A DNA stretch of 64,000 nucleotides from Bdellovibrionales bacterium (GTDB lineage Bacteria; Bdellovibrionota; Bdellovibrionia; Bdellovibrionales; UBA1609), in the NCBI GenBank assembly GCA_965205645.1, contig OZ242172.1, positions 704,122 through 768,121 on the forward strand, given 5' to 3'. The translations under genes were made by a program, and so were the position numbers. The notes beneath the pieces are model-generated. The model was not told the DNA's origin. It saw only the letters and a program-made list of their open reading frames with translations, and did not search any database. Position 1 is the stretch's first letter. The number at the start of each line of letters is the position of its first letter. Shown in pieces: positions 2,300-57,444 of this stretch.

Positions 2300-2399
2300 T
2301 AATTATAAAATAACATAATTTTTATGTATTTTATATATTTTTTTCTTGTTTTTTGCAATATATACTGGTAATTTCTATCGAAAAAGAGGGATGTCTATA

Positions 2400-3464: not shown

Positions 3465-3469
3465 ATTTA

Positions 3470-4123
3470 GTGAATCAGAAAAACAGATTTAGCATAAAAA
3501 TTACAGAAACAAAACTCCTTCTTGTAGAAGGAAAGGATGAAGAGTTTTTTTTTAAAACTTTCTTAAAAAAGAAAGAGATTTGTAATATTCAAATTATTTC
3601 TAGTGGTGGAAAAGATAAATTTAAGAACAAATTTCCAGCAATTAAAAACACTCCTGGCTTTGATGAAGTAACTTCATTGGCTGTCATCCATGATGCAGAT
3701 ACAAACGCTCAAGGGGCATTTCAAAGTATTTGTTCTGTATTAAAGAACAATAGCGTGGATTATCCTAAACAAATTTCATCATTTACTACTTCAAATTCCC
3801 TTAGAGTTGGGGTTTTTATTATTCCGGATGGAGGAAATCAAGGAAAGTTAGAATCTTTATGCTTATCTACAGTTGAGTCGGACAGTATTATAGAATGTAT
3901 TGATTCTTTTATGAGTTGTATAAAGCAGCAGTCACAGCTTGATATAAATAGATATAAAGAACCAAAAGATATTCATAAAGCTAGATGTAGGGCATTTCTC
4001 TCAGCTATGGAAGAGGATATTCCATCTTTGGGATTAGCTGCTGAAAAGGGTTATTGGAATTTAGATTCAGATAAATTGAATCCTATGTTGAATTTTTTAC
4101 AGGAATTAAATCGCAAAGAGTAA
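3470..4123 (+). CDS. Small Toprim-like partner protein (DUF4435/DUF3226-like)
   Basis: GTG start 6 nt after the ATPase stop. Contains LLLVEGKDEEFF (conserved Glu) and AVIHDADTN (DxD), the two Toprim acidic motifs, plus IIPDGGNQGKLESL. Confidence 0.55.
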   Translation: MNQKNRFSIKITETKLLLVEGKDEEFFFKTFLKKKEICNIQIISSGGKDKFKNKFPAIKNTPGFDEVTSLAVIHDADTNAQGAFQSICSVLKNNSVDYPKQISSFTTSNSLRVGVFIIPDGGNQGKLESLCLSTVESDSIIECIDSFMSCIKQQSQLDINRYKEPKDIHKARCRAFLSAMEEDIPSLGLAAEKGYWNLDSDKLNPMLNFLQELNRKE

Positions 4124-4148
4124 ATAATATATTAAAAAAAGCACTAAT

Positions 4149-5159: not shown

Positions 5160-5195
5160 TGCACGTGGTGAAGGCGCCGTTGGTGGTTTCTGATT
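5152..5195 (+). repeat. Direct repeat B (att-like copy of the ggt 3' end)
   Basis: CCTTTTGATGCACGTGGTGAAGGCGCCGTTGGTGGTTTCTGATT has 3 mismatches to copy A by hand alignment. Confidence 0.85.
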
Positions 5196-5264
5196 GTTTA
5201 TAGTTGTCTATTTAGTATTATTAAAAAATAGATTTGCGGTGGATGTATATTGTACAAACAGAAA

Positions 5265-6605: not shown

Positions 6606-6713
6606 CAGAGCGGATTAGAGAATACTCTGGGAATAAGGTTTAGTTTGCATGTGGTGGCAATTTTAGAAGGGGCTTTTGATGCGCGTGGTGAGGGTGCAGT
6701 CAGTAGTTTATAA
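6606..6713 (+). pseudogene. ggt: Displaced, diverged 3' remnant of ggt without the repeat
   Basis: Reads ...LHVVAILEGAFDARGEGAVSSL* in frame. The live gene has ...GRVMAV[38-aa repeat insert]LEGAFDARGEGAVGGF*. There is no upstream ORF. Confidence 0.65.
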
Positions 6714-6715
6714 TT
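6672..6715 (+). repeat. Direct repeat C (att-like)
   Basis: The first 20 nt are identical to copy A. There are 7 mismatches in the remaining 24 by hand alignment. Confidence 0.8.
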
Positions 6716-6725
6716 GGATAAAGTG

Positions 6726-8880: not shown

Positions 8881-9159
8881 AACAATTCCTTTTACTTCAG
8901 AACATTTTTCTTAATAATATCAGATGTTTAAATCCTTAAACCCAAGTAGGTATTAAGTTAAGTGAGGATATTTATCATACGAGTTGTCTTTATGCAACTT
9001 TAAAAAAGGGGTGGTGTAAATATTTACATTGCCAGTGTAAAAAAACAGCTATTTGCCTGGAAGCTCACGTTACTTAAGTACACATGATTGGCAAAATTAT
9101 GACATGGGAGTAGCAGATTCATAGCGCAGTTATTGATATCGTCTATCATTAGTTGTGTA

Positions 9160-9717
9160 TTATTTCATGTAATATTCTTTATATGAATTCATTTGTTGGT
9201 CTAAATGATCGATTTGTTTTTGCAATTTTTGAGATACAAAGAGTGCATGTTCATAGATTGTCTCTTCTAATTTCATTTTTAATTGTGCAATATGAATCAG
9301 CTGATTCAGCTTTGCATTGTATTTTGTGTGTGCAATAAATATTATCTTCGACGTTTCGTTTAATAGCTTCGGATTTTCTGCATGTTCTGTCACATTCTCT
9401 TCCAGCTGCTGGTCATGTTTCTGTTTATCTAGATAAGGCACAATGAGTTCTGTATGAAGAAGATCATTTACTTGATCTATTACATTGGAATATTGTTGAT
9501 TAGTTTCATCTACTTTTTTTGATAATTGTTTTAAGTCTATACCAGCTTCTTCTAGTGGTGTTCTATCTATGCCTTTAAAAGAAAATCGGCATTTTGTCCA
9601 AGAATTGCTATATGCATTCTGTGAAAGTAACAATGCACAAAATATTCCTATTATAGCTATGCTCAAACTCTCACAGCTATAATAGATAGAATGATAACAG
9701 TTTTTCCTACTCTGCAT
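9160..9717 (-). CDS. Secreted coiled-coil-like protein, family member 2
   Basis: Its N-terminus MQSRKNCYHSIYYS... is identical to the 9874 ORF, followed by a signal peptide. Confidence 0.6.
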   Translation of the reverse strand: MQSRKNCYHSIYYSCESLSIAIIGIFCALLLSQNAYSNSWTKCRFSFKGIDRTPLEEAGIDLKQLSKKVDETNQQYSNVIDQVNDLLHTELIVPYLDKQKHDQQLEENVTEHAENPKLLNETSKIIFIAHTKYNAKLNQLIHIAQLKMKLEETIYEHALFVSQKLQKQIDHLDQQMNSYKEYYMK

Positions 9718-9835
9718 GACATTCTCTTTAACAATTAGAGATTCTTTTCATTCATTCAAGCGATCGTACATCACTGAATGGGTACTCTCTTATCATAAGT
9801 GGCATAGTTGTGCAAATTTAAAGAGAGATTAATGT
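9655..9835 (-). repeat. Conserved leader plus 5' CDS segment of the paralog cassette (copy 1)
   Basis: About 180 bp are nearly identical to 10303..10488. The segment includes TTATCATAAGTGGCATAGTTGTGCAAATTTAAAGAGAGATT. Confidence 0.8.
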
Positions 9836-9873
9836 TTTGACTATAATGTTCTTATATTTTTTTTGAAGTTGTT

Positions 9874-10365
9874 TCATCTGTTAAATAGAATCCATAAGTT
9901 ATTTTGATGGATGTGGTTTAAGGTGTTAATTAGTTGTCTTGTTTGTTCGTTGTCTTTTCGATTTGATCTTTTCAGTTCCTGTAGTATGCTTCTTTTCATA
10001 GTTTCTCCTTCAGCTATTATTTGATCCAGTTTGTGATCCCATGGATTTATTTGTTCAGCGTTACTAGGGTATGTAGATTTTAATTTCTGTAGCAGATATG
10101 TTATTTTGTTTCTAAGGACGATAGATCTATCGTGAATGTGTTCTATATTTATTGGCTTTTGTGGTGTGTGAGATGGTTGGATTGCACTCTCTTTTGTTTC
10201 ATCGGTAGGCGCTGGATTGTCAAATGATTGTTGGCATTTATTTTCAGAAGTACCGTAAGTAGGGTGCGCAAATAACAATGCACAAAATATTCCTATTATA
10301 GTCGTTATGCTGAAAATCCTATAGCTATAATAGATAGAATGATAACAGTTTTTCCTACTCTGCAT
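9874..10365 (-). CDS. Secreted protein, family member 3
   Basis: STYPSNAEQINPWDHKLDQIIAEGETMKRSILQELKR...NNLWILFNR parallels the 10543 ORF. Confidence 0.6.
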   Translation of the reverse strand: MQSRKNCYHSIYYSYRIFSITTIIGIFCALLFAHPTYGTSENKCQQSFDNPAPTDETKESAIQPSHTPQKPINIEHIHDRSIVLRNKITYLLQKLKSTYPSNAEQINPWDHKLDQIIAEGETMKRSILQELKRSNRKDNEQTRQLINTLNHIHQNNLWILFNR

Positions 10366-10488
10366 GATGTTCTCTTTAACAATTAGAGATTCTTTTCACT
10401 CATTCATTCAAGCAATCGTGCATCGCTGAATGGGTACTCTCTTATCATAAGTAGCATAGTTGTGCAAATTTAAAGAGAGATTCATGTT
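10303..10488 (-). repeat. Conserved leader plus 5' CDS segment of the paralog cassette (copy 2)
   Basis: See 9655..9835. Degenerate versions of the TTATCATA..TGCAA core are also upstream of the 8551 and 10543 ORFs. Confidence 0.8.
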
Positions 10489-10542
10489 TTTTCTATGACT
10501 CTGAAGAATAAATCAATCTTCTGTTTTTCTTTTTTTGTATAG

Positions 10543-11055
10543 TTACTCAGATGGATTTTTCTTTGATAAGTTAATTTGTTGATCCTGGTATCCTTCCATG
10601 GATACTTTTAACCTGTTAGATAGAATCCATAAGTTATTTTGGTTGATATAATTAAAAATGTAATTTAATTTTACTGTTTGTTGGTTGTTATTTACATTTA
10701 TTCTTTTCAATTCTTGTATTATTGTGGTCATCTGTGTTTTTCCTTCAGCTATTATCTGATGAAGCTTATGATCTAATTGCTCTATTTTTTTAACGTCATT
10801 AGGATGTGTAGATTGTAATTTTTGTAGCAGATGTTCCGCTTCTTCCTTAAGAGCGGCAGATCGGATACTATATTGTTCTATGTTTATTGGCTGTTGCGCC
10901 GTGTGTTCAGTTTGGGCTGCACCTTTTTTTGTTTCATTACTGATAGGTGCTGAATTATTAAATGGTTGCTTGCATTTGTCTCCGGTAAAACCACCAGAAT
11001 CACCGTAAGCAGGATACGCAAATAGCAATACACAAAATATCCATATTATAGTCAT
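10543..11055 (-). CDS. Secreted protein, family member 4
   Basis: Signal peptide MTIIWIFCVLLFAYPAYG. Contains STHPNDVKKIEQLDHKLHQIIAEGKTQMTTIIQELKR...NNLWILSNR. Confidence 0.6.
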   Translation of the reverse strand: MTIIWIFCVLLFAYPAYGDSGGFTGDKCKQPFNNSAPISNETKKGAAQTEHTAQQPINIEQYSIRSAALKEEAEHLLQKLQSTHPNDVKKIEQLDHKLHQIIAEGKTQMTTIIQELKRINVNNNQQTVKLNYIFNYINQNNLWILSNRLKVSMEGYQDQQINLSKKNPSE

Positions 11056-16449: not shown

Positions 16450-16483
16450 TATCCTTAGTTAAAGAAACTTTTACCCCAAAAGT

Positions 16484-16990
16484 CAACCCCCCCCTCAAAA
16501 GGGGTAACTTCGCCGCGATTCCTTGCACGCATGTCACAATTTTGCTTATAAAGTTCGTCAAGTAAGTAAGTGTCCGCCCCCCAAAGGGGGTAACTTCGCC
16601 GCGATTCCTTGCACGCATGTCACAATTTTGCTTATAAAGTTCGTCAAGTAAGTAAGTGTCCGCCCCCCAAAGGGGGTAACTTCGCCGCGATTCCTTGCAC
16701 GCATGTCACAATTTTGCTTATAAAGTTCGTCAAGTAAGTAAGTGTCCGCCCCCAAAGGGGGTAACTTCGCCGCGATTCCTTGCACGCATGTCACAATTTT
16801 TCACATAAAGTTTGCCAAGTAAGTAAGTGTCCGCCCCCCAAAGGGGGTAACTTCGCCGCGATTCCTTGCACGCATGTCACAATTTTTCACATAAAGTTTG
16901 CCAAGTAAGTAAGTGTCCGCCCCCCAAAGGGGGTAACTTCGCCGCGATTCTGCTGTACGCATGTCACTCCTTGTAAATCATGTTTATCAG
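16484..16990 (-). repeat. Tandem array of 6 units of the hairpin repeat, period 86 bp (one unit is 85 bp), co-oriented with secG
   Basis: The TGTCCGCC landmark falls at 16571, 16657, 16743, 16828 and 16914. Monomer: GTCCGCCCCCCAAAGGGGGTAACTTCGCCGCGATTCCTTGCACGCATGTCACAATTTTGCTTATAAAGTTCGTCAAGTAAGTAAGT. The last two units switch to a TTTTTCACATAAAGTTTGCCAAG linker. Confidence 0.92.
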
Positions 16991-17151
16991 TTGTCTGCGG
17001 CGACCTCGCCATGCTCTGCGGCAAAATGCATATCTGAGCTTTTGAGTGAATTTTTTAAATGGGAAAACAAATATTTACACTGTTGCAAATTATGCTTGTA
17101 AATATCCGATTGTATGTTGAGTTTTGGAATAGCTTATTATTAAATAAGGCA

Positions 17152-18297: not shown

Positions 18298-19284
18298 ATG
18301 AAAGTGTTAGTAACAGGAGCAACCGGTTTCTTAGGTGGATGGCTGTGTAAAGCTTTGGTGAAAGAAGGGCACTCCGTGCACGCTTTAGTACGCCCTTCCA
18401 GTAATACTAGTGAATTGCAAAAACTGTCTGTTCATTTACATAAAGGGGATGTGACAGATCTTCATTCTTTCATGTCTGCCGCCAGTGGTGGGGTAGAAGT
18501 GTTATTTCATTTAGCAGGGTTGGTGGCTTATGCAGAAAGGCTGCGTTCAGCAATGCAGGCAGTAAATGTAGGAGGGACAGCTAATGCTATTGAAGTGTGT
18601 CGCCAACGAAATATTCGTTTAGTTTACATGAGTTCCGTTGCTGCTGTCGGAGCTAGTCTTACCTCGAAAGTGCTAAATGAAGAATCTCCTTATGAAATGG
18701 ACAAATTTCGTTTCGGGTATTTTGATACAAAAAGGAAAGCAGAAATATTAGTACGACAAGCTTGCCAAAAAGGTGATCTATTTGCAGTTATTTTAAATCC
18801 TTCTAATGTTTATGGTGCAGGGGATATGCGCAAAGCTAGTCGACGGACACATATCTGGGTCGCAACAGGTAGTCTTCCATTTTATACTTCCGGTGGACTC
18901 AGTGTGGTGAACGTGGAATCTGTTATTGAAACCACGATACAAGCTGTGCAAAAAGGCCGGTCTGGAGAAAGATATATTCTCAGTGGTGAAAATATTAGTA
19001 TTCAAAAATTGTTTCAATTGGTAGCGAAAGCTGCCGGTAGTCACCCTCCCTCTATTCGTATGAGTAATTTTGTTTTAGATTCACTCGTGCTGGTTGGCCA
19101 AGGATTAAAAGCGATGGGGTTCCGCTTTTTTTTAAATGATAAAGATATGCGATTAGGTCGATTTTATCACTGGTTTGATCATAGTAAAGCTAGTGCAGAA
19201 CTGGATTTTTCTCCGCAGCCAGCTGCTTACGCTATTTCTAATTCCATTGAGTGGTGGAAAAAACACTGCCAATCAAAAACATAA
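18298..19284 (+). CDS. NAD-dependent epimerase/dehydratase family (extended SDR)
   Basis: MKVLVTGATGFLGGWL and YFDTKRKAE (YxxxK). Confidence 0.8.
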   Translation: MKVLVTGATGFLGGWLCKALVKEGHSVHALVRPSSNTSELQKLSVHLHKGDVTDLHSFMSAASGGVEVLFHLAGLVAYAERLRSAMQAVNVGGTANAIEVCRQRNIRLVYMSSVAAVGASLTSKVLNEESPYEMDKFRFGYFDTKRKAEILVRQACQKGDLFAVILNPSNVYGAGDMRKASRRTHIWVATGSLPFYTSGGLSVVNVESVIETTIQAVQKGRSGERYILSGENISIQKLFQLVAKAAGSHPPSIRMSNFVLDSLVLVGQGLKAMGFRFFLNDKDMRLGRFYHWFDHSKASAELDFSPQPAAYAISNSIEWWKKHCQSKT

Positions 19285-19373
19285 AGTAGGAAGGTAGTAA
19301 CATGAGTGCAGGGACTCGCGGCGAAAGTAACCCCCTATGGGGGCGCGGCGCTGTATCCCCCCCGATTTGGGGG
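19285..19373 (+). repeat. Partial forward repeat unit spanning the argS start codon
   Basis: GTAACATGAGTGCAGGGACTCGCGGCGAAAGTAACCCCCTATGGGGGCGCGGCGCTGTATCCCCCCCGATTTGGGGG compares with the canonical GTGACATGGGAGCAGCGGACTCGCGGCGAAA... Confidence 0.8.
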
Positions 19374-21143
19374 TTGGATCAGTTTACCAGTATTGTATGT
19401 CGCGATTTATCTCGTACCATTCATAAATTATTTCAATTGGATCTGGCAGAAAATCAAATAGCTCAGTACTTTAGTGCTCCTCCACAGGAGGACTGGGGAC
19501 ATTGGGCTTTGCCTTGTTTCTTTCTTGCAAACAAACAAAAAAAAATAAACCCCGCTGCAGCTTCTGCACAAATTGCAAACGCTTATCAAGTTCCCTCTAC
19601 TATATTTGAGCGAGTTGTCGCAAAAGGTCCTTATGTAAATTTTTTTTTTCAACCAGCTTTTTTATGTCAAAAGCTACTGAATCCCATCCGTTCCGGAGAG
19701 TTATTTCAATTGCCACCTAAAAAAAATAATCCATGGTTGGTGGAATACTCACAACCTAATACACATAAGGAATTACATATCGGCCACTTAAGAAATTTAT
19801 GTTTCGGTTTAGCTTTAACCACTTTATTAAAAAAACGAGGCTTTTCAGTCATTAGCTGTACTTTTCCTGGGGATACGGGCACACATACTGCGAAATGCTT
19901 ATGGTATTTGAAATACCATAATAAAGAAAAACCTCCTGATGAAACACATCCTCCTTTTGTGCGCAAAGGGGCATGGTTAGGATATATTTATACAAAAGCT
20001 TGCTTAAAATTTGAGGAAGCTGTCAAAGAGGCGGACTCTGCTCCGATCGTTCAAAAACAAGTGACGGATATTTTGAAACAACTACAGTCCAAACAAGGTG
20101 ATATTTATGAGCTATGGAAAGAAACACGCGAATGGAGCTGTGATTTAATGAAACAAGTGTACGAGTGGGTAGGAGTGCAATTTGACAAATGGTATTGGGA
20201 ATCAGAAGTGGATGAACCTTCCGTTCAGTTGATTAAAGATCTTTATCAAAAAAAACAACTCACTAAATCTGAATCAGCTATTGGTAAAGACTTAGGTTCA
20301 AAATTGGGATTTTGTTTGCTATTAAAATCAGACGGTAATGGATTATACGCTACTAAAGATATTTATCTAGCTAAAAAAAAGATGGAAGATTATCACCCGG
20401 AAAAAAATATTTATATCGTGGACCAAAGACAAGAGCGACACTTCCAACAAGTGTTCGCTGTATTAGATCATATTGGTTGTTCAGAAATTGCCAGCCGATC
20501 TAAACATTTAAAATATAACTTTGTACAACTACCTTCTGGTCCTATGAGCTCTAGAGACGGAAATATCGTTCCTATTATGGACATAATCCAAAAAATGACA
20601 GCTTATGTGAAAAAACAGTTTTTACAAAAATATGAGAATAACTGGGATAAAGATCAACAAGAACAAGTAGCTCGTCAAGTTGCTGAAGGAGCTATTAAAT
20701 ATGGAATGAATGAGCAGGATTTAAACAAAAAAATTATTTTTAATATGCAGGAATGGCTCAATTGGGATGGTAAATCAGGGCCGTATATTCAGTATGCATA
20801 CGCCAGATCTTGCTCTCTTTTAAAGAAATTCAATGCGGATAATCAGACGATTCAATACAAAGAACCAACTGCGTTTTCACCGGAAGAACAGTCAATTATT
20901 GTGCACCTTTCTCGTTTCTCTCTCATAATGGAAAATAGCGCCTGGCAAATGAAAACCGCACCCGTTTGCCATTATTTATTCGATCTGGCTAAACAGTTTT
21001 CCCGCTTCTATCAAAATTGCCCCATCGGTAGTTTAAAAGATCAAGAGAAGAAAAATTTTCGCCTGTTTCTCGTGCAGGTCGTTCAATCAGCCCTGAAAGA
21101 AGGACTATCCTACCTGTCCATTCCCACCCCTGAAAAAATGTAA
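19302..21143 (+). CDS. argS: Arginine--tRNA ligase. The first ~24 codons are repeat-derived.
   Basis: HIGHLRN class-I motif, PMSSRDGNIV, and a DALR-like C-terminus. The ATG at 19302 is the ATG carried by the repeat. An alternative in-frame TTG lies at 19374. Confidence 0.9.
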   Translation: MSAGTRGESNPLWGRGAVSPPIWGLDQFTSIVCRDLSRTIHKLFQLDLAENQIAQYFSAPPQEDWGHWALPCFFLANKQKKINPAAASAQIANAYQVPSTIFERVVAKGPYVNFFFQPAFLCQKLLNPIRSGELFQLPPKKNNPWLVEYSQPNTHKELHIGHLRNLCFGLALTTLLKKRGFSVISCTFPGDTGTHTAKCLWYLKYHNKEKPPDETHPPFVRKGAWLGYIYTKACLKFEEAVKEADSAPIVQKQVTDILKQLQSKQGDIYELWKETREWSCDLMKQVYEWVGVQFDKWYWESEVDEPSVQLIKDLYQKKQLTKSESAIGKDLGSKLGFCLLLKSDGNGLYATKDIYLAKKKMEDYHPEKNIYIVDQRQERHFQQVFAVLDHIGCSEIASRSKHLKYNFVQLPSGPMSSRDGNIVPIMDIIQKMTAYVKKQFLQKYENNWDKDQQEQVARQVAEGAIKYGMNEQDLNKKIIFNMQEWLNWDGKSGPYIQYAYARSCSLLKKFNADNQTIQYKEPTAFSPEEQSIIVHLSRFSLIMENSAWQMKTAPVCHYLFDLAKQFSRFYQNCPIGSLKDQEKKNFRLFLVQVVQSALKEGLSYLSIPTPEKM

Positions 21144-21475
21144 CCCCCCTCAAAGGGGGAGTGATTTCGCCGCGATTCCTTGCATCCATGTCACTATTTT
21201 ATACATTATGTTCGCCAAATAACCCCCTCTGGGGGCGCCGCCCGCGAGTCGCGGGGGATACTTTCGCCGCGGCTGTATTTACGTTATTGTCACTATCTTG
21301 CACATTATGTTCGCCAAGTAAGTGTCCATGGCGACTCGTTTGAGCTTTTAAACAAGGTTTTTAAACTTAAGAGATTCACAAAATAAGCGCCAGAGCGAAC
21401 ATCTGCGGCGCAGTATTCATGGCGATCCGCCACTGGTAACCTGCTACTGCATTTACATTATTGTCACGATTTTAA
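21143..21475 (-). repeat. Cluster of about 3 inverted-orientation repeat units downstream of argS
   Basis: CCCCCCTCAAAGGGGGAGTGATTTCGCCGCGATTCCTTGCATCCATGTCACTATTTTATACATTATGTT..., then CCCCCTCTGGGGG and CCCGCGAGTCGCGGG hairpins, then a degenerate unit ending ATTATTGTCACGATTTT. Confidence 0.85.
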
Positions 21476-33656: not shown

Positions 33657-34040
33657 GATTTCAGCTCGTCATTATGTTTAAGTGATAGTATTTACTGATA
33701 TACATTCACTTTGTAAAGGTAGTTATTTCAGTATTAACGAAAATAAGCTATTACTCTTGATCGTATCTTTTATTGTTGAGGTATTTTACTGTCAATATAT
33801 ATTAAATATTTTCTAAAAATAGCTATGTAATTTTTACAATATAGATCCTAACTGCGGGAACAGCTGTCATTATTACGATAGGTGTTGGATCCTCAGGGGA
33901 TGTAAAGCCAAAAATCTTAATGGAATACAAGATCTTGATATGGAGTGCACAGTCGAAAGTCTTACTTGTTGTGATAATACTCTAATTTTTATTTATCTTT
34001 TATTTTTTTTGGTATGTAATAAATTAAGACAATAAAAGCA

Positions 34041-34340
34041 ATGCGGAGAAAATATAAAATGCAATATATAAAAAAAATCATTATCTGTTGTTGTGTATTG
34101 CTTCTATCACCTCTGGCTTTCGGTGTTATTTCAGATGTACATATTACGGGCTTTATTGTGAAATATAACAAGGACACAGTTCAGTTGCAGCAAAGAGGCA
34201 ATCGCACAATCACTGTACCAAGAAGTGCTATTCCCAAGGATTTTCCATTAAAGACAGGAAGAGAGGTAACAGTTGTTATCAGTGGCAAAGAATTTATGAA
34301 AAGAATAAATCAAAAACAAGTAGCAGCAAAAAAAGAAACA
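34041..34340 (+). repeat. 300-bp near-identical duplicate (2 mismatches) of 35579..35878
   Basis: Hand alignment at an offset of 1538 bp. The differences are at 34045 (G/A) and about 34168 (A/G, giving Asn/Asp). Confidence 0.9.
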
Positions 34341-34388
34341 AAACAGATCCATAAGCATAAAAAGAGCAAATCAGACACCAGCAAATAA
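34041..34388 (+). CDS. Small secreted protein with a Lys-rich tail (family A, copy 1)
   Basis: Signal peptide IICCCVLLLSPLAFG. Near-identical to the 35579 ORF over the first 100 codons. Confidence 0.65.
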   Translation: MRRKYKMQYIKKIIICCCVLLLSPLAFGVISDVHITGFIVKYNKDTVQLQQRGNRTITVPRSAIPKDFPLKTGREVTVVISGKEFMKRINQKQVAAKKETKQIHKHKKSKSDTSK

Positions 34389-34525
34389 TTTCTGATAAGA
34401 AATATATGATGTACATCATAGTTATGAATCTGATGTTTGGAATTTAAAAATATTAATGGTAGCAGCTAGATTAAAAAACTGAGGATATAGAGTAAGAAAA
34501 GGCAAAGAAGCGAAAAGGAAATATT

Positions 34526-35443
34526 ATGAAAACTAAGATAATTAAACTCAGTATAGTAATGGGATTTTTATTTTTTTCAGCAAGCAGTTTTGGTGTGTTT
34601 GATATTGGTGCTGAGTATGTAGCAGATTGTTATGCAGAAGATAGTGCTATTCATGCTTTATATAGAGGTGCTGCTAAATTGGCTAATACTTTGTCTATTA
34701 ACTGTGGTTCTCCTAAAAATAGTTATATACCCAGAGATACAAAGTTGCAGGCGTTGAGTGTGGCTGTGGTTAGAAAAGATGAAGATGGTTATAATGTAAT
34801 TGAGCATAATAATATTACGCTTAATAAACCTCCTGGTGGCATTGTGGATTATTTACCGGGGAATATCAATAATAACCAATGGTTAAGAAAACAGCTGGGT
34901 CGTTTTCAATTAAAAGATCGGGATGAAATAAGGCTTTTATCTCATTATATAGATCCTGACTTAGTAGATTCTTTTTCTCAAGAGCGTTTGAAGAAGAACG
35001 TGCATTCTGTTGGGTTTCGGCCTATTCAGCGTCCTAAATATTCTAAACCTGTTCGCGATTATTTTCATTGCCATTATATAAACTCATCACCACATAAAAC
35101 CTTACCACCAATAATAATATATAGAAACATGAATAAAATGTGCGAACAGCCGAATAAAAATAGATATCATCTATGCTCCTCTCCTATATCTTGTATAGAG
35201 AATGGCACCAAAGTGGACTCACATACTGTTTGTTTACTAAATAAGGATGGTTCATGTCCTTCAGCTACTGAGTGTGCTCTATCGGGATCAAGCCCTAAGA
35301 GAGAGAAGAATAGCGCGATTTTAGCACATTCTACTAGGTATAATTCAGAAACAAACAGATTTGAGGAGTGGTATGCTAATGATTTATCTGCGTACGATGA
35401 GCAAGATACAGACACTAATAGCATACAAAATGCAGTACAGTGA
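34526..35443 (+). CDS. Secreted Cys-containing protein (family B, copy 1), unknown function
   Basis: Signal peptide KLSIVMGFLFFSASSFG. Paralog of the 36077 ORF (shared DCYAED, YLPGNINNN, VHS(V/I)G(F/Y)RPIQRPK, GSCPSAT). Confidence 0.6.
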   Translation: MKTKIIKLSIVMGFLFFSASSFGVFDIGAEYVADCYAEDSAIHALYRGAAKLANTLSINCGSPKNSYIPRDTKLQALSVAVVRKDEDGYNVIEHNNITLNKPPGGIVDYLPGNINNNQWLRKQLGRFQLKDRDEIRLLSHYIDPDLVDSFSQERLKKNVHSVGFRPIQRPKYSKPVRDYFHCHYINSSPHKTLPPIIIYRNMNKMCEQPNKNRYHLCSSPISCIENGTKVDSHTVCLLNKDGSCPSATECALSGSSPKREKNSAILAHSTRYNSETNRFEEWYANDLSAYDEQDTDTNSIQNAVQ

Positions 35444-35578
35444 TTGTAGTAATAAGTGCAAGACTATTAGTCGGTATATACAGATAAAAGTTTTGTTTGC
35501 TATTGGTAATTTTCTTATTTTTATTTATTTTTTATCATTTTTGATAGGTAATAAAATAAGATAAAAATCTGAGGAACA

Positions 35579-35878
35579 ATGCAGAGAAAATATAAAATGC
35601 AATATATAAAAAAAATCATTATCTGTTGTTGTGTATTGCTTCTATCACCTCTGGCTTTCGGTGTTATTTCAGATGTACATATTACGGGCTTTATTGTGAA
35701 ATATGACAAGGACACAGTTCAGTTGCAGCAAAGAGGCAATCGCACAATCACTGTACCAAGAAGTGCTATTCCCAAGGATTTTCCATTAAAGACAGGAAGA
35801 GAGGTAACAGTTGTTATCAGTGGCAAAGAATTTATGAAAAGAATAAATCAAAAACAAGTAGCAGCAAAAAAAGAAACA
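35579..35878 (+). repeat. Second copy of the 300-bp near-identical duplicate
   Basis: See 34041..34340. Confidence 0.9.
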
Positions 35879-35929
35879 CAGAAAATCAGTTTAAAACCAC
35901 AAAAGAAAAAAACAGATGTTAAAAAATAA
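35579..35929 (+). CDS. Small secreted protein with a Lys-rich tail (family A, copy 2)
   Basis: See 34041..34388. Confidence 0.65.
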   Translation: MQRKYKMQYIKKIIICCCVLLLSPLAFGVISDVHITGFIVKYDKDTVQLQQRGNRTITVPRSAIPKDFPLKTGREVTVVISGKEFMKRINQKQVAAKKETQKISLKPQKKKTDVKK

Positions 35930-36076
35930 TTTCTGATGTGCAGATGCATGAATACTAAAAGTGGATAGCAAGGTTTATGTTTGTACTTTAAGGGTGTTTT
36001 AATGACGGTAATTTAGGGGTTTCATAGTAACAGGGATATATAAAACAAGACAGGTTAAGAAAAGATATAGGGGGTA

Positions 36077-36982
36077 ATGATGACTCAAAAGATGATAAGA
36101 CTTAGTTTGGTTATGGGGTTTTTATTTTTTTCAGCAAGCAGTTTTGGTGTTGATATTGATGTTCATACTAATCTAGTGAAAGATTGTTATGCAGATGATA
36201 ATGCCAGTCATGCTCTATATCAAGGCGCTGCGATGCTTAATGATACTTTGCCGATTAATTGTGATGGTGATAAAGAGCGTTCCATATCTAGAGATACAAA
36301 ATTGCTAGCTCTTCGCGTAGCTGTCGTTGGAAAAGACAAAGACGGCTACAATATTATTAAACATAACGATATTGTGGTAAATAAACCGGCTGGTAGCATT
36401 AAGGATTATTTGCCGGGGAATATCAACAATAATACAGGATTGAGAAAAAAACTTGGATATCTTAAGGTAACAGATGGGGATGAAATAAGAGTTTTATCTC
36501 ATTACGTAGATCATTTTGTTCAGGAGCAACCAAAGAAAAATGTGCATTCCATTGGGTATCGGCCTATTCAGCGTCCTAAAGATTCTAAGTCTTCTAGTTC
36601 TTTGATCTGTCAGTATAGAAATGGACCACCAATGCTAATATATAGAAAAAATCTATGTAAACAATCGAATAAGGAAGTAAATTATGTGTGCTCTTCTCCT
36701 GTAGTGTGTATAGAGCAGATAATGGGTAAAATCAAAGTGGAGACCCATGCTATTTGTTTAGCGAATAAAAATGGTTCATGTCCTTCAGCGACTAAATGTG
36801 CTGCTGTTGAGGATGGTAAAGAGCATGAGTTATATACAGTTAATGCATTTCCTACTTATTATAATAAGACAAGTAAAACATTTAGGAATGACTTGGTTAG
36901 TAGAAATTTAGATGGAGGAAAGTTTGGTGGTCATACGCTAACTAAGGATATGAATAATGGATCCGTAGATGGAGTACAATAA
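36077..36982 (+). CDS. Secreted Cys-containing protein (family B, copy 2)
   Basis: See 34526..35443. The mature regions are only roughly half identical by eye. Confidence 0.6.
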   Translation: MMTQKMIRLSLVMGFLFFSASSFGVDIDVHTNLVKDCYADDNASHALYQGAAMLNDTLPINCDGDKERSISRDTKLLALRVAVVGKDKDGYNIIKHNDIVVNKPAGSIKDYLPGNINNNTGLRKKLGYLKVTDGDEIRVLSHYVDHFVQEQPKKNVHSIGYRPIQRPKDSKSSSSLICQYRNGPPMLIYRKNLCKQSNKEVNYVCSSPVVCIEQIMGKIKVETHAICLANKNGSCPSATKCAAVEDGKEHELYTVNAFPTYYNKTSKTFRNDLVSRNLDGGKFGGHTLTKDMNNGSVDGVQ

Positions 36983-37143
36983 TATACTGTTACATTCTTC
37001 TATAGTTTCTAATCTGTGTCTCAAAAAATACTAATTGTATTTTTTACACTCTTGTTTTGATACTCTTAGTGTATTATTTTGCTTTTATGAAAAAGATATA
37101 TTATGTTTCTTGAAAAATAGCACTTTAAAACAGAAGGTGGGTT

Positions 37144-37470
37144 ATGAAATATTTTTTTGTTTTTGGTTTGTTATTATCTGGTTCAGCTTATGCTGTAGAT
37201 GTTGATTGTGAAAAATTAATTGAGAATTATATAAAAAGTGCTAAAGCTTATAGTATGGGTGGAGATCTCACTATACGGGACAGAAGAGCGCTTTCACCGG
37301 AAGATAGAGAATCAGAGTTTAATGAATCTCTGGCCAGTTATGACATAGCTATATTAAACCTCATAACCAGTGATATTCAATTGAAACAATGTCAATTAAG
37401 TGAATCTGACACGGCTAGAATAGATAAGGTAGTATCTCGTCTTATAAACCGTCCTCTAACATTTAAATAA
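37144..37470 (+). CDS. Small secreted protein (108 aa)
   Basis: Signal peptide MKYFFVFGLLLSGSAYAVD is shared with the next ORF. Confidence 0.5.
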   Translation: MKYFFVFGLLLSGSAYAVDVDCEKLIENYIKSAKAYSMGGDLTIRDRRALSPEDRESEFNESLASYDIAILNLITSDIQLKQCQLSESDTARIDKVVSRLINRPLTFK

Positions 37471-37517
37471 TTGATAGAAATTGTTATTTACAGTAACTTA
37501 AACAAAAGGGAAAAATT

Positions 37518-37844
37518 ATGAAATATTTTATTATCTTTGGCTTGTTATTATCTGGTTCAGCTTATGCTGTAGACTGCCAAGAGGAGTTAGATAACTATTC
37601 AGCAAAGAATGCAGGTTTTAAAACAGTTTATAACACTGCAGTAGATAAAATAGCGTTTTCAGATGGGGATAGCGTATCGGCAATAATGCAGAAGGTTAAG
37701 AATGCTCATATGGATCGCTGGTATAGTCTTTATGAATTAAATGTGTGCTACTATGAAACAAAGCAATGGCGTATAGAGGGTAAATGGCCGGATCAAGAAA
37801 TAATAGAAAAAGTTATTAATGAAGCAGACAGAACTCCTTGGTGA
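37518..37844 (+). CDS. Small secreted protein (108 aa)
   Basis: Signal peptide MKYFIIFGLLLSGSAYAVD. The mature part is unrelated to the previous ORF by eye. Confidence 0.5.
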   Translation: MKYFIIFGLLLSGSAYAVDCQEELDNYSAKNAGFKTVYNTAVDKIAFSDGDSVSAIMQKVKNAHMDRWYSLYELNVCYYETKQWRIEGKWPDQEIIEKVINEADRTPW

Positions 37845-38152: not shown

Positions 38153-38174
38153 ATGTTCAGTCAAAAATTTAGAA

Positions 38175-41176
<3,002 letters not shown>

Positions 41177-41200
41177 ACTAAATCTATTGATTGTTATAAA

Positions 41201-41247
41201 GCTAAGAATGTTTTGAGTACGGATAATTTTTTTTAAGTATGAGTTAC
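41201..41247 (+). other. 3' half of the 23S rRNA processing stem
   Basis: See 38101..38152. Confidence 0.6.
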
Positions 41248-41276
41248 TTTATTTTTGTTAGTATTTAATTTTGATT

Positions 41277-41393
41277 TGCTGGTGTCTCTAGCGGCGGGGC
41301 CACACCTGTTCCCATCCCGAACACAGAAGTTAAGCCTGCCAGCGGCGATGGTACTATGGGGCTGACCCCATGGGAGAGTAGCACGATGCCAGC
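41277..41393 (+). rRNA. rrf: 5S ribosomal RNA
   Basis: CCACACCTGTTCCCATCCCGAACACAGAAGTTAAGC...CCCATGGGAGAGTAGCACGATGCCAGC, followed by a T-run. Confidence 0.95.
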
Positions 41394-41866
41394 TTTTTTT
41401 TATTTATTGAACAGTATAAGTACTTATCCCATTACCTTATATACGTATTTGTTTCGTATCCCAGATAAAATAAATTGTAATGTTTTAACCATGTCGTTTT
41501 GCCTGTTTCTCGGGACAAGGAGAAAAAACGAGCGGTGAGAAAGACGAAATAAACGCGTAAACATAGACGTCAATTTGACTGGCTTATTGACATTATGTCG
41601 AACAATATTCCTGATCATAGGTCACAGCAATCATCATGCAGCAGCTTTTTGCCTGTAAAATTTTCCTTGTATACCTGGTTACAATTTTTATCTTATGTTT
41701 AAGTTATTTTTCACAAAAGGTACATATGGATTAAATAAGTTTGGTGAAGATCCTTTAAAGTGTTACATTGTCCAGTAAAATAAATATTTGGAAGTATTAA
41801 AAATAAAATTAATTTTTTTAATTGTTTCTTCATTTACCTTCTCAGCATTCTTTTTAGCATGTTCTG

Positions 41867-54915: not shown

Positions 54916-55170
54916 CTGGTTGGTAAGGGAAGCCAAGCGGGATTTTTTTCTATCCGCTTTTCGGCGATGAGTTAATCCTTTACGGACGGATTTATCTATA
55001 GTGATACTGAACTGTTTCAGTTGTTCTGTTGCTTTAGGTTTATCTTTTTGTTGGACGGAGCCTCGTAAGTTTTTTTCTAAGGTATTGATTCGACTTTGTA
55101 TATTTTTATTAATTTTGGTGCGACGAATGGTTTTCCGAATACTTTTTTTTGTAGATGAATGATTGGCCAT
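54910..55170 (-). CDS. rpsT: 30S ribosomal protein S20
   Basis: MANHSSTKKSIRKTIRRTKINK..., basic, 86 aa. Confidence 0.9.
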   Translation of the reverse strand: MANHSSTKKSIRKTIRRTKINKNIQSRINTLEKNLRGSVQQKDKPKATEQLKQFSITIDKSVRKGLTHRRKADRKKSRLASLTNQL

Positions 55171-55289
55171 AGAGGCTAACTCCTGTTATAGGGTGTTTAT
55201 TAGCAAGTGTTATCATGGTTTTTTTTATTTTGCAAGGTAGATGAAATTCAGAGTGTATAGGGTTTTTTAATAGGGAATGGGGGACGTTT

Positions 55290-55626
55290 GATAAACATAA
55301 TTTACAAAGTCGTGACAATAGCGCAAATGGAACCGCGGCGAAAGTAACCCCCTATGGGGGCGGCGAGTCGGCGGGGACGTTTAATAAACATAATTTGCAA
55401 AGTCGTGACAATAGCGCAAATGGAGCCGCGGCGAAAGTAACCACCTATGGGGGCGGCGACTTGCCGCCGCGGCGAAGTATCCACCTCCGATTCGGGGGTG
55501 CGGTTGTATAGGTACTTAATGAGCATGATATGCACAGTAGTGACATGAAAGCAGCGGAATCACGGCGCAATGTCAGCGGCGACTTGCCGCCGCGGCGTAA
55601 TCACTCCTCCATTGGGGGGGTGCGGT
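55290..55626 (+). repeat. Three forward repeat units in the rpsT-murJ divergent spacer, running into the murJ ORF
   Basis: GATAAACATAATTTACAAAGTCGTGACAATAGCGCAAATGGAACCGCGGCGAAAGTAACCCCCTATGGGGG..., a second unit at 55383, and a third diverged unit (GAGCATGATATGCACAGTAGTGACATGAAAGCAGCGGAATCACGGCG...) at 55520. Confidence 0.9.
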
Positions 55627-57197
55627 TAGCTGTATTGATGGCCTGTGGCACTTTTATTTCACGTGTTTTGGGGTTAGTGCGTGACATGGTCATTGGTGCA
55701 TTTTTTTCCAGAACGCACACGGACGCTTTTTTTGTAGCTTTTCGTGCACCTAATTTTTTTCGTCGGTTTTTAGGAGAGGGTGCTCTTTCTATTAGTTTTA
55801 TTCCTGTTTTTATTCAATGTTTGTCTGAATCATCGGAGGGTAAGGAAGGGTCGGCGGTACGTGCCAGGAATTTTGTCAACAGTGTGTATACAATTATGTT
55901 GATTATGGTTGGTGTGTTGACTGTAGTGGGCATTATTTTCATGGATCCATTATTACGAGCTTTATTTGCTAATACGGCTTTTGCGGATATAGAGGGAAAA
56001 GTGAGAATGGTGACTGTGTTAGCCAGGTGGCTATTTGTCTATTTATTTTTAGTTACTTTATATGCTTATTTTATGGGGATTGCTAATGCTTTGGGTTCAT
56101 TTTTCATTCCGGCGGTAGCTCCGGCTTTATTAAATGTGTGTATTATTATTTTTTCATTGGTTCCTCATTCTATTGTCTCTCTTCCTCCTTTGTTGTTGTG
56201 TTGGGGGGTATTGCTTGGGGGGGTATTACAGGTATTATTAACAGCGGTTGTGCTTTACCGTTTAGGTTTTTTACCTAGGTTGACCTGGCAATTTTCTCGA
56301 TCTGATTTGAAAGTAATGGGCGTTCGATTTTTGCCAGGATTATTAGGAGTGGGTGGTTTTTCCGTCATTAGTTTATTAAATTTATATTTTGCGGCGTGGT
56401 TAGAGGAAGGTGCGCATACGTTTATTTATTATGGGGATCGTTTGTTGGAACTACCTCGTTCTTTAATTGCGATTAGTTTAGGTGCTGCTTTGTTACCGAA
56501 TCTTTCTTATTTTATGGTTGCTGGTAAAAGGGATGAGTTATCGGATTCAGCCGCTTGGCAAAGGGATATTTTATTATTTTTGATTGTGCCTTGTGCTTTG
56601 GCTTTTTGGTATTTAGGGCTTCCGATTGTGGATGTATTATTTCGGAGGGGTTTATTTGATGAGGATACCACTCGCAAGACAGCTCTCGTGTTACAAATTT
56701 ATTCTGTACTATTAATTACGTCTTCTTTAAGTCGGATATTAGCTACTTGTTTTTATGCGGTAAGAAATGTTTGGTATCCGGCTTTGGCTTGTTTTTTGTA
56801 TATTGTTTTTCATTGGTGTTTTACTCCGTTTATGATTGATTGGTTTGGTTTAGAAGGATTGGTGTGGGCAACGGTGGTTTCTAATGCATTTTTTATGAGT
56901 CTGCTTTTATTTGCTTATCCGTTTTATGTAGGGTGTTTACATGTTTGGAGAACTATTCGGCGGTGGTTATGGTCTGCGCCGGCGTTAGTTTTATTATATT
57001 TATACTTACATTTTTCTATTTATTTTTTTCCATCCTTATGGTTAGTGAGAGAAGATCGGGTGTCTACTAGTGCTTTAGTTTTTGTTATTTTATCGTCCAT
57101 TGTTTTATACATTGGGGTAGGGTGGTTGCTACGTGTACCTCAGGCATTAGAGTGTATACGATTAGCTAGTAAAAAGGCAAAATCGGTTAAAACTTAA
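55530..57197 (+). CDS. murJ: Lipid II flippase MurJ. The first ~30 codons of the longest ORF are repeat sequence.
   Basis: SRVLGLVRDMVIGAFF...AFFVAFRAPNFFRRFLGEGALSISFIPVF. A GTG at 55620 (VRLAVLMACGTF...) would give a conventional N-terminus. Confidence 0.9.
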   Translation: MHSSDMKAAESRRNVSGDLPPRRNHSSIGGVRLAVLMACGTFISRVLGLVRDMVIGAFFSRTHTDAFFVAFRAPNFFRRFLGEGALSISFIPVFIQCLSESSEGKEGSAVRARNFVNSVYTIMLIMVGVLTVVGIIFMDPLLRALFANTAFADIEGKVRMVTVLARWLFVYLFLVTLYAYFMGIANALGSFFIPAVAPALLNVCIIIFSLVPHSIVSLPPLLLCWGVLLGGVLQVLLTAVVLYRLGFLPRLTWQFSRSDLKVMGVRFLPGLLGVGGFSVISLLNLYFAAWLEEGAHTFIYYGDRLLELPRSLIAISLGAALLPNLSYFMVAGKRDELSDSAAWQRDILLFLIVPCALAFWYLGLPIVDVLFRRGLFDEDTTRKTALVLQIYSVLLITSSLSRILATCFYAVRNVWYPALACFLYIVFHWCFTPFMIDWFGLEGLVWATVVSNAFFMSLLLFAYPFYVGCLHVWRTIRRWLWSAPALVLLYLYLHFSIYFFPSLWLVREDRVSTSALVFVILSSIVLYIGVGWLLRVPQALECIRLASKKAKSVKT

Positions 57198-57204
57198 GTA
57201 ATAC

Positions 57205-57437
57205 TGGCAGGTTGCCGGTGACATTTATTTGTAAACATGATTTGCAAAGTTGTAACATGGGAGCAGCGGACTCGCGGCGAAACCACTCTCCCTTTGAGGG
57301 AGCGGCGCCGCCGAGTCGGCGGAGACACTTTTGGTAAACATAATTTGCAAAGCAGTGACATGGGAGCAGCGGACTCGCGGCGAAACCACTCTCCCTTTGA
57401 GGGAGGGGCGAAATCACTCTCCCTTTGAGGGAGGAGG
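57205..57437 (+). repeat. Two forward repeat units filling the murJ-ybeY spacer
   Basis: GTAAACATGATTTGCAAAGTTGTAACATGGGAGCAGCGGACTCGCGGCGAAACCACTCTCCCTTTGAGGGAG..., repeated from 57326. CTCCC-TTTGA-GGGAG hairpins occur 3 times. The last G-arm abuts GGAGG, 7 nt before the ybeY ATG. Confidence 0.9.
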
Positions 57438-57444
57438 TTAGGAA

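Follow-up and report, generated by a model that had tools for sequence, protein, structure and literature searches.

A mosaic repeat with variable GC-rich hairpin modules and in-frame genic copies in a Bdellovibrionales genome

Results

A conserved head followed by variable hairpin modules

A 64 kb window from a Bdellovibrionales bacterium (contig OZ242172.1, positions 704,122 to 768,121), representing ~4% of its 1.56 Mb genome, carries a family of short repeats in which a conserved head of ~50 nt is followed by small GC-rich hairpins that differ in sequence and number from copy to copy. Using an nhmmer profile made from seven repeat copies (E < 1e-3), 21 units grouped into ten clusters were identified in the window, where the clusters occupy 2,199 bp (3.4%), and a further 59 units were found in seven related loci (related loci examined, ~130 kb). 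Some of these units reside in frame within protein-coding genes, which is their most striking property and one missing from the first-pass annotation of this DNA. On balance, we favor the view that they form a lineage-specific, non-autonomous mosaic repeat that acts at the DNA level, is selfish or neutral, and uses the hairpins as variable modules.

The repeat clusters are enriched in hairpins. When the window was scanned for perfect GC-rich stems (≥5 bp; loops of 1-7 nt), 32 matches fell within the 2.2 kb of clusters versus 21 across the other 61.8 kb, six of which fall in 23S rRNA. Simulated first-order Markov windows gave 3-15 matches in total, placing the observation far above chance expectation. 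The head motif matched eight times in the window at ≤3 mismatches versus zero times in 100 shuffles. Within clusters, the hairpins have stems of 5-9 bp and loops of 2-6 nt in host DNA of ~35% G+C. On its plus strand the window has a marked excess of G and T (strong positive GC skew, T > A), and seven of the ten clusters are located on the G-rich strand.

Parsing ~50 units of the window and the related loci produced a common grammar. The head reads TAAACATAATTTGCAAAG-NN-GTGACA-linker-GGAATCGCGGCG and precedes the hairpin modules, which number one to four in a general description and zero to four when only poly-C modules of the parsed grammar are counted. In full units GACAC-TTTTGG stands 5' of the head, and the complete order is a CG hairpin, GACAC-TTTTGG-TAAACATAATTTGCAAAG-NN-GTGACA-linker-GCGGCG, then zero to four repeats of a tag plus poly-C/poly-G hairpin, and optionally CGGCG with a further CG hairpin. 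Linkers occur as two subtypes (15 or 17 nt), a short TGNGTGCAAGGAATC and a long ATAACGCAAATGGAGCC. Each module joins a tag of 6-8 nt, of the type (A)AGTNA or AAxCACT (AAAGTAA, CAGTGA, AAGTTA, CTGTAA and AAACCACT were found), to a poly-C/poly-G hairpin. A CG-type junction hairpin (prototype CCGCCG-AGT-CGGCGG) often follows the modules and abuts the GACAC of the next unit, and in some arrays one is also found 5' of the first head (57204-57218 and 17010 in the window; 455 in locus L083). Individual hairpins are 13-21 nt long, those of the CG type being followed by (G/A)GACAC, and tandem arrays have periods of 86, 93 and 103 bp. Consecutive modules run in direct orientation, with few inverted relative to the head and no regular doublets. 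Terminal inverted repeats are absent, one end of the unit (GACAC-TTTTGG...) not being the inverse of the other (...hairpin), and the hairpin modules at some array junctions bear only a loose resemblance to inverted ends. The head itself is unstructured, as RNAalifold over 37 heads gave -0.14 kcal/mol with two pairs, ruling out a conserved secondary structure in this part of the unit.

All five hairpin forms listed by the first-pass annotation were recovered, although its coordinates were off by 1-9 nt, and its view of them as modules of one repeat family held. The forms are CCCCC-YWW-GGGGG (55348-55360, 57746-57758, 57791-57803, 19331-19343 and six copies in 16491-16933), CCGCCG-AGT-CGGCGG (461-475 and 57308-57322), GCGGCG-ACTTGC-CGCCGC (55453-55470 and 55576-55593, alternatively GCGGCG-ACT-TGCCGC with a G.T closing pair), CTCCC-TTTGA-GGGAG (57288-57302, 57391-57405 and 57419-57433), which is better drawn with a 6-bp stem as CTCCCT-TTG-AGGGAG, and CCCGCGA-G-TCGCGGG (21241-21255). 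Runs of two or three hairpins, also described earlier, are present, for example, at 57746/57767/57791 and 55453/55482.

Related contigs were collected from the European Nucleotide Archive, reached via a profile of the repeat-encoded peptide and then via ArgS and YbeY orthologues. One of them (L081) is another strain, 97.5-98.8% identical to the window over four genes, two (L084 and L088) represent a sister species from a sponge metagenome with an 87% identical ArgS, and one (L087) is a third species carrying the family, while a more distant contig (L086; ArgS 69% identical) contained no units in 21.8 kb. The closest named relatives are small-genome Bdellovibrionales metagenome-assembled genomes (MAGs) with 66% identity in RF2, and ArgS matches at ~60-64% identity include many genomes of 1.3-2 Mb. 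No repeat units were found in 80 RF2 loci of relatives. An exact match to the head pattern was absent from 185,579 genomes, each representing one GTDB species, and JGI metagenomes held no exact match to either of two different head patterns, indicating that the family is rare. Rfam identified only rRNA at gathering score over the whole window and nothing at E ≤ 1 in 55200-57900 (Rfam 15), and no description of this repeat was found in the literature searched. The family is confined to one Bdellovibrionales-related lineage, where four related taxa carry it, including one recovered from a sponge metagenome.

Stems change while pairing is kept

Choosing hairpins by their complementarity would make any test of pairing circular, and the junction hairpin set was therefore defined by position alone, as the 15 nt ending one base before the GACAY of the head. 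This set contained 15 distinct sequences, four of which have lost the canonical stem, and its stems include CCGCCG/CGGCGG, CTGCCG/CGGCGG, CCGGCG/CGCCGG, CCCGCG/CGCGGG, GCGGCA/TGCCGC, GCGGCG/CGCCGC and CTGGCA/TGCCGG. Under a fixed 6-3-6 structure, 85.6% of cells were paired versus 69.7% in shuffled sets, with none of 500 shuffles reaching as high a value. Both sides had changed at five of the six pairs, and sliding the partner by 1-3 columns left a pairing of only 24-60%. Overall, at least eight different stems occupy one position of the grammar within ~170 kb.

Poly-C hairpins were anchored on GGCG-N(2-3)-GTNA, a motif followed by a hairpin in 23 of 23 instances inside repeats versus 0 of 9 elsewhere in ~190 kb. 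Their covariation is not significant; the arms are near-homopolymeric and vary chiefly by T.G wobble. Compensated variants occur as CCCTC/GAGGG (in L087, and also beside argS in L084) and as CTCCCT/AGGGAG versus CCCCCT/AGGGGG, and CCCTC/GGGGG intermediates are found in the window and in L084. A changed stem of constant shape, as proposed by the first-pass annotation, is also seen between species, where the orthologous unit at the argS stop codon carries CCCCCT-TTG-AGGGGG in the window and CCCTC-TAT-GAGGG in L084, both perfect, and again inside ybeY. In the latter case, stem compensation alters the peptide from VTPFGG to VTLFEGG (P to L together with G to E), which places the pairing constraint on the nucleic acid and not on the protein.

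Among the non-Watson-Crick cells of folded modules, 14 were T.G and two were C.A, as expected if the sense strand of the element folds, either as RNA or as single-stranded DNA. Identical stems carry complementary loops (TTT/AAA, TCT/AGA and AGT/ACT), and tag-plus-hairpin modules are found in both orientations relative to the head; together, these observations suggest that modules have been inverted as DNA. It appears that the shape of the hairpin and not its sequence matters for propagation.

In-frame copies within genes

Within the window, in-frame copies are located in ggt (four sites) and ybeY, all of them in sense orientation and in the single frame that gives ...KHNLQSRD...VTPxGG. The first ggt unit (409-483, plus strand) consists of a head and the CG hairpin CCGCCG-AGT-CGGCGG (461-475) and encodes the in-frame peptide GKHNLQSRDMGAAESRRRRVGGDTF; a second tandem unit follows on the same strand (484-568), with a head and a poly-C hairpin (540-556). 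A solitary plus-strand unit (730-810) bears the hairpin CCCTCC-TT-GGGGGG with one T.G pair, and a composite at the 3' end (1303-1436, both strands), formed by a reverse partial unit (~1306-1380) abutting a forward unit (1362-1436), provides the C-terminal tail of the open reading frame (ORF). The 730-810 insert ends directly before the catalytic Thr, the first residue of the small subunit, as query residue 268 (Thr of TTHFS) aligns with residue 1 of solved small subunits. Given that the insert ends at the autoprocessing site, it would form the C-terminal tail of the large subunit after cleavage. Six repeat-peptide stretches are present in the full-length GGT of this genome.

The unit inside ybeY (57686-57810, plus strand) has a head and three poly-C modules and encodes the in-frame peptide IDKHNLQSRDNNANGAAAKVTPFGGAVTPLGGGAVTPSGG. 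It adds 40 residues at a position where solved YbeY structures have 0-5, and is predicted to be a disordered loop, with per-residue confidence scores (pLDDTs) below 50 compared to 88-96 for the core. The YbeY insert is common to the four taxa and always in frame, with protein lengths ranging from 180 to 288 aa.

Searching 1.84 billion representative proteins with the repeat-peptide profile identified 32 proteins. Pfam assigned insert carriers to a triosephosphate isomerase that the insert splits, an Exo III-like nuclease, SufBD, a phosphogluco/phosphomannomutase-family enzyme, an Amidase_2 enzyme, a YjeF/NAD(P)HX dehydratase and a Mur ligase; the host genes by name are GGT, YbeY, TIM, Xth, SufD, GlmM, AmpD, YjeF and Mur ligase. 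A weak PilM-like match among the carriers fell under the Pfam cut-off (25.7 vs 27 bits; E 6.8e-06), and the remaining matches are short ORFs called in intergenic repeats. No Pfam family corresponds to the repeat-encoded peptide. A hand-built consensus unit (head, one poly-C module and one CG hairpin) is open in three of six frames. The frame used in genes is hydrophilic and open through the head, but stops at the AAAGTAA tag of the consensus tail; genic copies stay open by virtue of their own linker and tag lengths.

Two observations concern gene models. The longest ORFs of murJ and argS begin inside repeat units (55530-55640 and 19302-19380, respectively) at the ATG of GTGACATG, and gene callers report repeat-encoded N-termini as well as ORFs of 60-75 aa within intergenic arrays (P0001-P0004). 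Both the N-termini and the small intergenic ORFs are likely annotation artifacts.

Turnover between strains and species

Between the window and the other strain, L081, unit number, module number and linker subtype differ across all three shared sites. The spacer between murJ and ybeY contains no unit in L087, one in L088, two in the window and four in L081; the breakpoints between the window and L081 fall in hairpin modules, and no target duplication was observed when the empty L087 site was set against the window (one comparison, other sites being too diverged). Upstream of murJ, three units in the window contrast with one in L081. Inside ybeY the position of the insert is identical in both strains, yet ~11 of 20 linker positions have switched subtype between identical flanks, which looks like gene conversion, and one extra module is present, the overall length change of 18 nt preserving the reading frame. 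Aligned between strains, repeat DNA is 87-96% identical compared to 97.5-98.8% for genes.

Single hairpins also decay. The window hairpin GCGGCG-ACT-TGCCGC corresponds to GCAGCG-ACT-GGCCGC in L081, with four of six pairs left, and two CCCCC-AAA-GGGGG hairpins of locus L082 have acquired disrupting G-to-A changes in L083 (3' arms GGGAG and GGGGA). Such decay between ~98%-identical strains argues against a host function for every copy, for example, as an RNA stability element throughout. The 5' end of argS, occupied in the window but empty in L084, and the murJ-ybeY spacer, without a unit in L087, point to gains at new sites.

A second, longer palindromic repeat (core GCATGTTTGAGCTTTTGAAC, arms of ~40 nt) was noticed in the relatives, beside or inside clusters, at L082 3074-3093, L084 1043-1400 and 5560-5760, and L087 10230-10330, where it is in frame in ybeY; it was not found in the window at ≤3 mismatches. 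In L087 1-9400, many syntenic genes are split or truncated (holA in two ORFs, murJ of 381 aa, ABC transporter genes fragmented), representing either frameshift errors of long-read assembly or real pseudogenes.

Remaining units and neighboring features of the window

Outside ggt and ybeY, the units are distributed as follows. A degenerate head with no intact hairpin (9075-9140, plus strand) lies between two minus-strand genes. Upstream of secG, a minus-strand cluster (16480-17015) comprises six units, five of which form an 86-bp tandem array, each with CCCCC-TTT-GGGGG(G), and the array is preceded by the hairpin GGCGA-GG-TCGCC and GCAGACAAC. The plus-strand unit at the 5' end of argS (19273-19380), whose site is empty in L084, has two poly-C hairpins. 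Downstream of argS, a minus-strand cluster (21137-21472) of two units and a degenerate third is antisense to both adjoining genes; its hairpins are CCCGCG-ACT-CGCGGG, CCCCC-AGA-GGGGG and CCCCCT-TTG-AGGGGG, and its last unit is orthologous to one in L084.

All units around murJ and ybeY are on the plus strand. A long-linker unit (55280-55372) contains CCCCC-TAT-GGGGG and a junction hairpin short of its 5' arm (CGGCG-AGT-CGGCGG). It is followed by a three-hairpin unit (55373-55510) with CCACC-TAT-GGGGG (one A.G mismatch), GCGGCG-ACTTGC-CGCCGC and CACCTCCG-ATT-CGGGGGTG (one T.G), and by a unit upstream of or overlapping the murJ 5' end (55516-55625) with GCGGCG-ACTTGC-CGCCGC and CACTCCTCC-ATT-GGGGGGGTG (two T.G), the sole unit held by L081 at that site. 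Seven nucleotides past the murJ stop codon, a left-terminal junction hairpin (57204-57218; CTGGCA-GGT-TGCCGG, one T.G) precedes TGACATTTATTTG and is the only family hairpin scoring terminator-like in the scanned region 55000-58000. The next unit (57228-57330) has a head, CTCCCT-TTG-AGGGAG (57288-57302) and CCGCCG-AGT-CGGCGG (57308-57322), and the unit before ybeY (57331-57437) has a head and two CTCCCT-TTG-AGGGAG hairpins in a 28-nt period (57391-57405 and 57419-57433). The second of these contributes its 3' arm, GGGAGGAGG, as the ybeY Shine-Dalgarno sequence (GGAGG, 7 nt before the ATG at 57445), an arrangement that is identical in L081. Its 5' arm, CTCCCT, resembles an anti-Shine-Dalgarno sequence, and the hairpin could mask the ribosome-binding site.

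Several other classifications were considered and dropped. A promoter role was abandoned as no sigma-70-like promoter was found within the repeats and the sigma-54 spacing, checked by eye, does not fit. Intrinsic terminators as a class were rejected because a stem-loop followed by a U-run was present only at 57202-57220 among family hairpins in 55000-58000. Readings as CRISPR, integron attC site, tRNA/tmRNA or retron were discarded, given arrays without unique spacers and no tRNA or tmRNA found, and long-range folds of whole clusters were set aside as their minimum-free-energy and centroid structures are at odds.

A distinct repeat of 51 nt, GGGCTTTTGATGCGCGTGGTGAAGGCGCAGTTGGTGGTTTCTGATTTTTTA, is present in three copies of 80-92% identity (1426-1476, 5150-5200 and 6670-6720), each containing a small hairpin followed by a T-rich tail. 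They are located at or near gene ends, the first directly after the ggt 3'-end cluster. Also beside ggt is a small defense-like island (1649-5159) with an AbiEi-type antitoxin regulator (1649-2299, minus strand) and a DUF3226/OLD-like TOPRIM protein (3470-4123). Tandem paralogous gene sets without Pfam match are found at 34039-37000, 9570-10830 and 37142-37844. The tandem paralogues include two cassettes of ~1.5 kb, in which the first 300 nt are 99% identical and the rest 72-87%, and three paralogues at 9.2-11.1 kb; two 108-aa ORFs have near-identical hydrophobic N-termini that are possibly signal-peptide-like. Finally, a 23S-5S rRNA operon (38174-41394) has no upstream 16S gene, with two small paralogous ORFs in its place, and its 23S exceeds the Rfam model by ~80 nt. 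Reduced genomes of host-associated bacteria typically have unlinked rRNA genes.

Discussion

How the repeats may spread and persist

The distribution of the family over many unlinked sites and genes calls for a seeding mechanism beyond slippage. We propose that an activity supplied in trans would seed new sites by reading the head by sequence and the GC hairpins by shape only, probably using single-stranded DNA of the element's sense strand. Once resident, copies would expand and contract in tandem through slippage or unequal recombination between hairpin modules, and be overwritten by gene conversion from other copies. Stems would stay complementary if only foldable copies propagate, if palindromes correct themselves by intrastrand template switching, or both; template-switch self-correction of short palindromes could keep stems perfect without selection. 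A single resident copy would be unprotected and would decay. Within genes, purifying selection on the host protein would act as a filter, passing only sense copies in the one frame that gives a hydrophilic Gly/Pro/Arg-rich peptide (KHNLQSRD...VTPxGG), with frame-preserving lengths and at surface loops or termini.

Several points weigh against this account. Repeat copies are kin by descent, meaning that counts are not numbers of independent events, and the samples are small. Structure kept while sequence varies, as the first-pass annotation had it, stood for the junction hairpin but not for the poly-C hairpin, for which covariation was not significant (90.4% vs 89.2% paired, 83 of 500 shuffles as high). 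The T.G excess could stem from strand-biased C-to-T mutation, which is conceivable given the strong positive GC skew and the excess of T over A on the plus strand. No insertion event with clean boundaries was seen, and the polymorphisms are explicable by recombination among existing copies. No Y1/HUH, DDE or other transposase was identified in the 30 ORFs scanned among those of at least 100 aa in the window, in agreement with the earlier reading that the window has no RAYT (REP-associated tyrosine transposase, REP denoting repetitive extragenic palindromic sequences), and the precomputed Pfam tables of the related loci contain no mobilizing enzyme; with 64 kb of a 1.56 Mb genome in view, however, a missing RAYT says little. 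Lastly, some copies may have been co-opted by the host, namely, the arm providing the ybeY Shine-Dalgarno sequence and the hairpins at the argS and murJ stop codons, considering that the argS-stop unit keeps a perfect but different hairpin across species and that the last hairpin supplies the ybeY Shine-Dalgarno sequence.

Alternative explanations

The hairpins could instead be true REP sequences or REPINs, or palindromes derived from IS200/IS605 elements, mobilized by a single-copy Y1 (HUH) RAYT or TnpA encoded elsewhere in the chromosome. Such an enzyme would bind hairpins on the template of the lagging strand, cleave next to the stem at the short tag, and copy or relocate units with no target duplication. 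This explanation, which the first-pass annotation had raised, is unlikely. A single-strand transposase of RAYT or IS200 type is the first candidate to consider for the seeding activity. It would account for short GC palindromes in high copy number, for the conserved unpaired tag (GTAA, GTGA, GTTA or GTCA) 5' of poly-C stems and the strict association of the GTNA anchor with a hairpin inside repeats (23/23, compared to 0/9 outside), for the missing target duplication at the one empty-versus-filled site, and for the strand asymmetry of the T.G excess together with the bias of clusters (7/10) to the G-rich strand; REPs within genes are also on record (PMC3733652). However, two testable hallmarks fail. 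The tag is GTNA or CACT and not the GTAG or CGTC that defines both REP superfamilies (PMC3733652), and the location is not strictly extragenic. In addition, modules are chiefly direct tandems rather than inverted doublets, a single sequence-specific RAYT is hard to reconcile with at least eight stems at one position, the most extensive conserved part, a non-palindromic head of 50 nt, has no counterpart in REPs, and neither the scanned ORFs of the window nor the Pfam tables for ~130 kb of related loci include a Y1 transposase.

Alternatively, the repeats may be RNA elements that benefit the host, acting as 3' stabilizers or terminators or as 5' stem-loops that hide the ribosome-binding site, in which case the repeat would be a portable regulatory cassette. 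We consider this improbable as a general role. The 14:2 ratio of T.G to C.A in sense orientation is compatible with wobble pairing, as is the C-G to U.G to U-A series represented by CCCCC/GGGGG, CCCTC/GGGGG and CCCTC/GAGGG. A hairpin begins directly at the argS stop codon in two species, a terminator-like one is found 7 nt past the murJ stop codon, and a hairpin with a CTCCCT arm, resembling an anti-Shine-Dalgarno sequence, provides the Shine-Dalgarno sequence of ybeY through its 3' arm. Folding of the repeat regions is also more stable than that of shuffled sequence (z-scores -4.4 and -3.2), although minimum-free-energy and centroid structures disagree. Conversely, clusters between co-directional genes are two sense and two antisense, others are located in divergent promoter regions (rpsT/murJ and secG/bioB) or inside coding sequence, and a U-rich tail follows only one hairpin in 55000-58000. 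Copy number varies from zero to four at one site among close relatives, single hairpins decay between strains, which together with the unbiased orientation speaks against the RNA stability element suggested earlier, complementary loop pairs are not a product of RNA selection, and Rfam has no match. Taken together, the unbiased orientation, the clusters in divergent promoters, the 0-4 copy variation and the complementary loops make a general RNA-level function unlikely.

A bolder version of the favored DNA-level reading would see here an independent second invention of protein-coding palindromic repeats outside Rickettsiales, in a reduced, probably sponge-associated member of the Bdellovibrionota. 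The activity would be neither a RAYT nor a classical transposase but, for example, a hairpin-primed or template-switching copying process that recognizes the head by sequence and the hairpins by structure on one DNA strand, and essential enzymes would owe many of their new loops and tails to the repeats. We offer this as speculation with a low prior.

A minisatellite-like family that spreads by slippage, unequal crossing-over and ectopic gene conversion would need neither mobilization nor structural selection, and the perfection of its stems would be a side effect of mutation, with quasi-palindromes corrected by template switching. All strain differences are explicable by recombination among existing modules, and the tandem arrays (86-, 93- and 103-bp periods), the conversion-like linker switch in ybeY, the complementary loop pairs and the lack of a transposase in the 30 ORFs scanned are all in keeping with it. 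Nevertheless, it is very unlikely to be the full explanation, as slippage cannot seed more than ten unlinked sites per 64 kb or at least ten different genes, and gains are indicated at the argS 5' end (empty in L084) and the murJ-ybeY spacer (empty in L087). That the unit is a selected peptide motif or domain with incidental DNA hairpins is hardly credible: every coding copy does use one reading frame, and KHNLQSRD...VTPxGG recurs in many proteins, but most copies are intergenic, some are antisense, some periods (86, 28 and 103 nt) are not multiples of three, stem compensation changes the encoded residues (P to L together with G to E), disorder is predicted for the YbeY insert, and the peptide has no Pfam family.

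Significance

Short hairpin repeats (REP; bacterial interspersed mosaic elements, BIMEs; BOX; Rickettsia palindromic elements, RPEs) are widespread, and the way most of them spread is still unexplained. Entry in frame into many genes had been seen only in Rickettsia and its relatives, and the present family is a second, unrelated case from another phylum. Its two parts, a head read by sequence and hairpins read by shape, are cleanly separable, several co-varying stems occur at one defined position, and close relatives differ at the same sites, with zero to four units in one spacer and YbeY lengths of 180 to 288 aa. This makes the shape requirement for propagation and the folding strand accessible to testing, and likewise how TIM, YbeY and GGT, as essential enzymes, accommodate or exploit insertions ranging from tens of residues to over 100. 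On a practical level, annotations of the lineage contain spurious small ORFs and inflated gene models because of the repeats.

Comparison with known repeat families

RPEs enter many housekeeping genes in frame (PMC10969869, PMC1779305). Like these and the Wolbachia elements, the repeats described here are short (~100-150 bp), non-autonomous and hosted by a small AT-rich genome of a probably host-associated bacterium, where they are intergenic but also unusually frequent in frame in housekeeping genes, encoding a hydrophilic peptide tolerated by the fold. Their sequence is unrelated, judging from the head pattern scan (0 in 185,579 species genomes) and Rfam, and the nearest relatives of their host are Bdellovibrionales MAGs in another phylum. 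RPEs are palindromic over their whole length, whereas this element folds only in its tail modules, with an unstructured head and small hairpins that vary in number. Tandem arrays and rapid copy-number change are further features that set it apart.

With REPs and REPINs the family shares high-copy GC-rich hairpins of 13-21 nt, a short unpaired tag by the stem, stems that differ between families at constant shape, and a frequent position near gene ends. In contrast to them, it has tags of GTAA, GTGA, GTTA, GTCA or CACT instead of GTAG or CGTC, a direct tandem arrangement with a large conserved non-palindromic head, and a location that is not extragenic, with copies in frame in ggt, ybeY and at least eight further protein families. 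Its lack of terminal inverted repeats distinguishes it from miniature inverted-repeat transposable elements.

In BIME- and BOX-type repeats, a modular grammar is combined with internal module numbers that differ between strains. The conserved modules of variable number and order in BIMEs, BOX elements (boxA-boxB(n)-boxC) and neisserial mosaics, equally variable between strains, are the nearest structural parallel. Clustering of BOX elements (PMC10969869) and the mosaics of Neisseria (PMC3733652, section 7) have been described. Their sequences are unrelated to the present ones, the variable module here is a minimal GC hairpin with co-varying stems, and in-frame genic residence, common in this element, is atypical of BIMEs and BOX. 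By analogy only, the GC clusters of yeast mitochondria are also short GC-rich palindromic modules in an AT-rich genome, variable between strains and associated with recombination. One such cluster lies in frame in the protein gene var1. Population data exist for them (PMC4464245), but they belong to an organelle genome and have no conserved AT-rich head.

Overall, the family is closest to RPEs in behavior and to BIMEs, BOX elements and neisserial mosaics in architecture, with hairpin modules that resemble REPs. By sequence it belongs to none of these families. Each of its properties has a precedent; the combination of a non-palindromic head, structure-only hairpins in varying number and widespread in-frame residence, in this phylum, is new.

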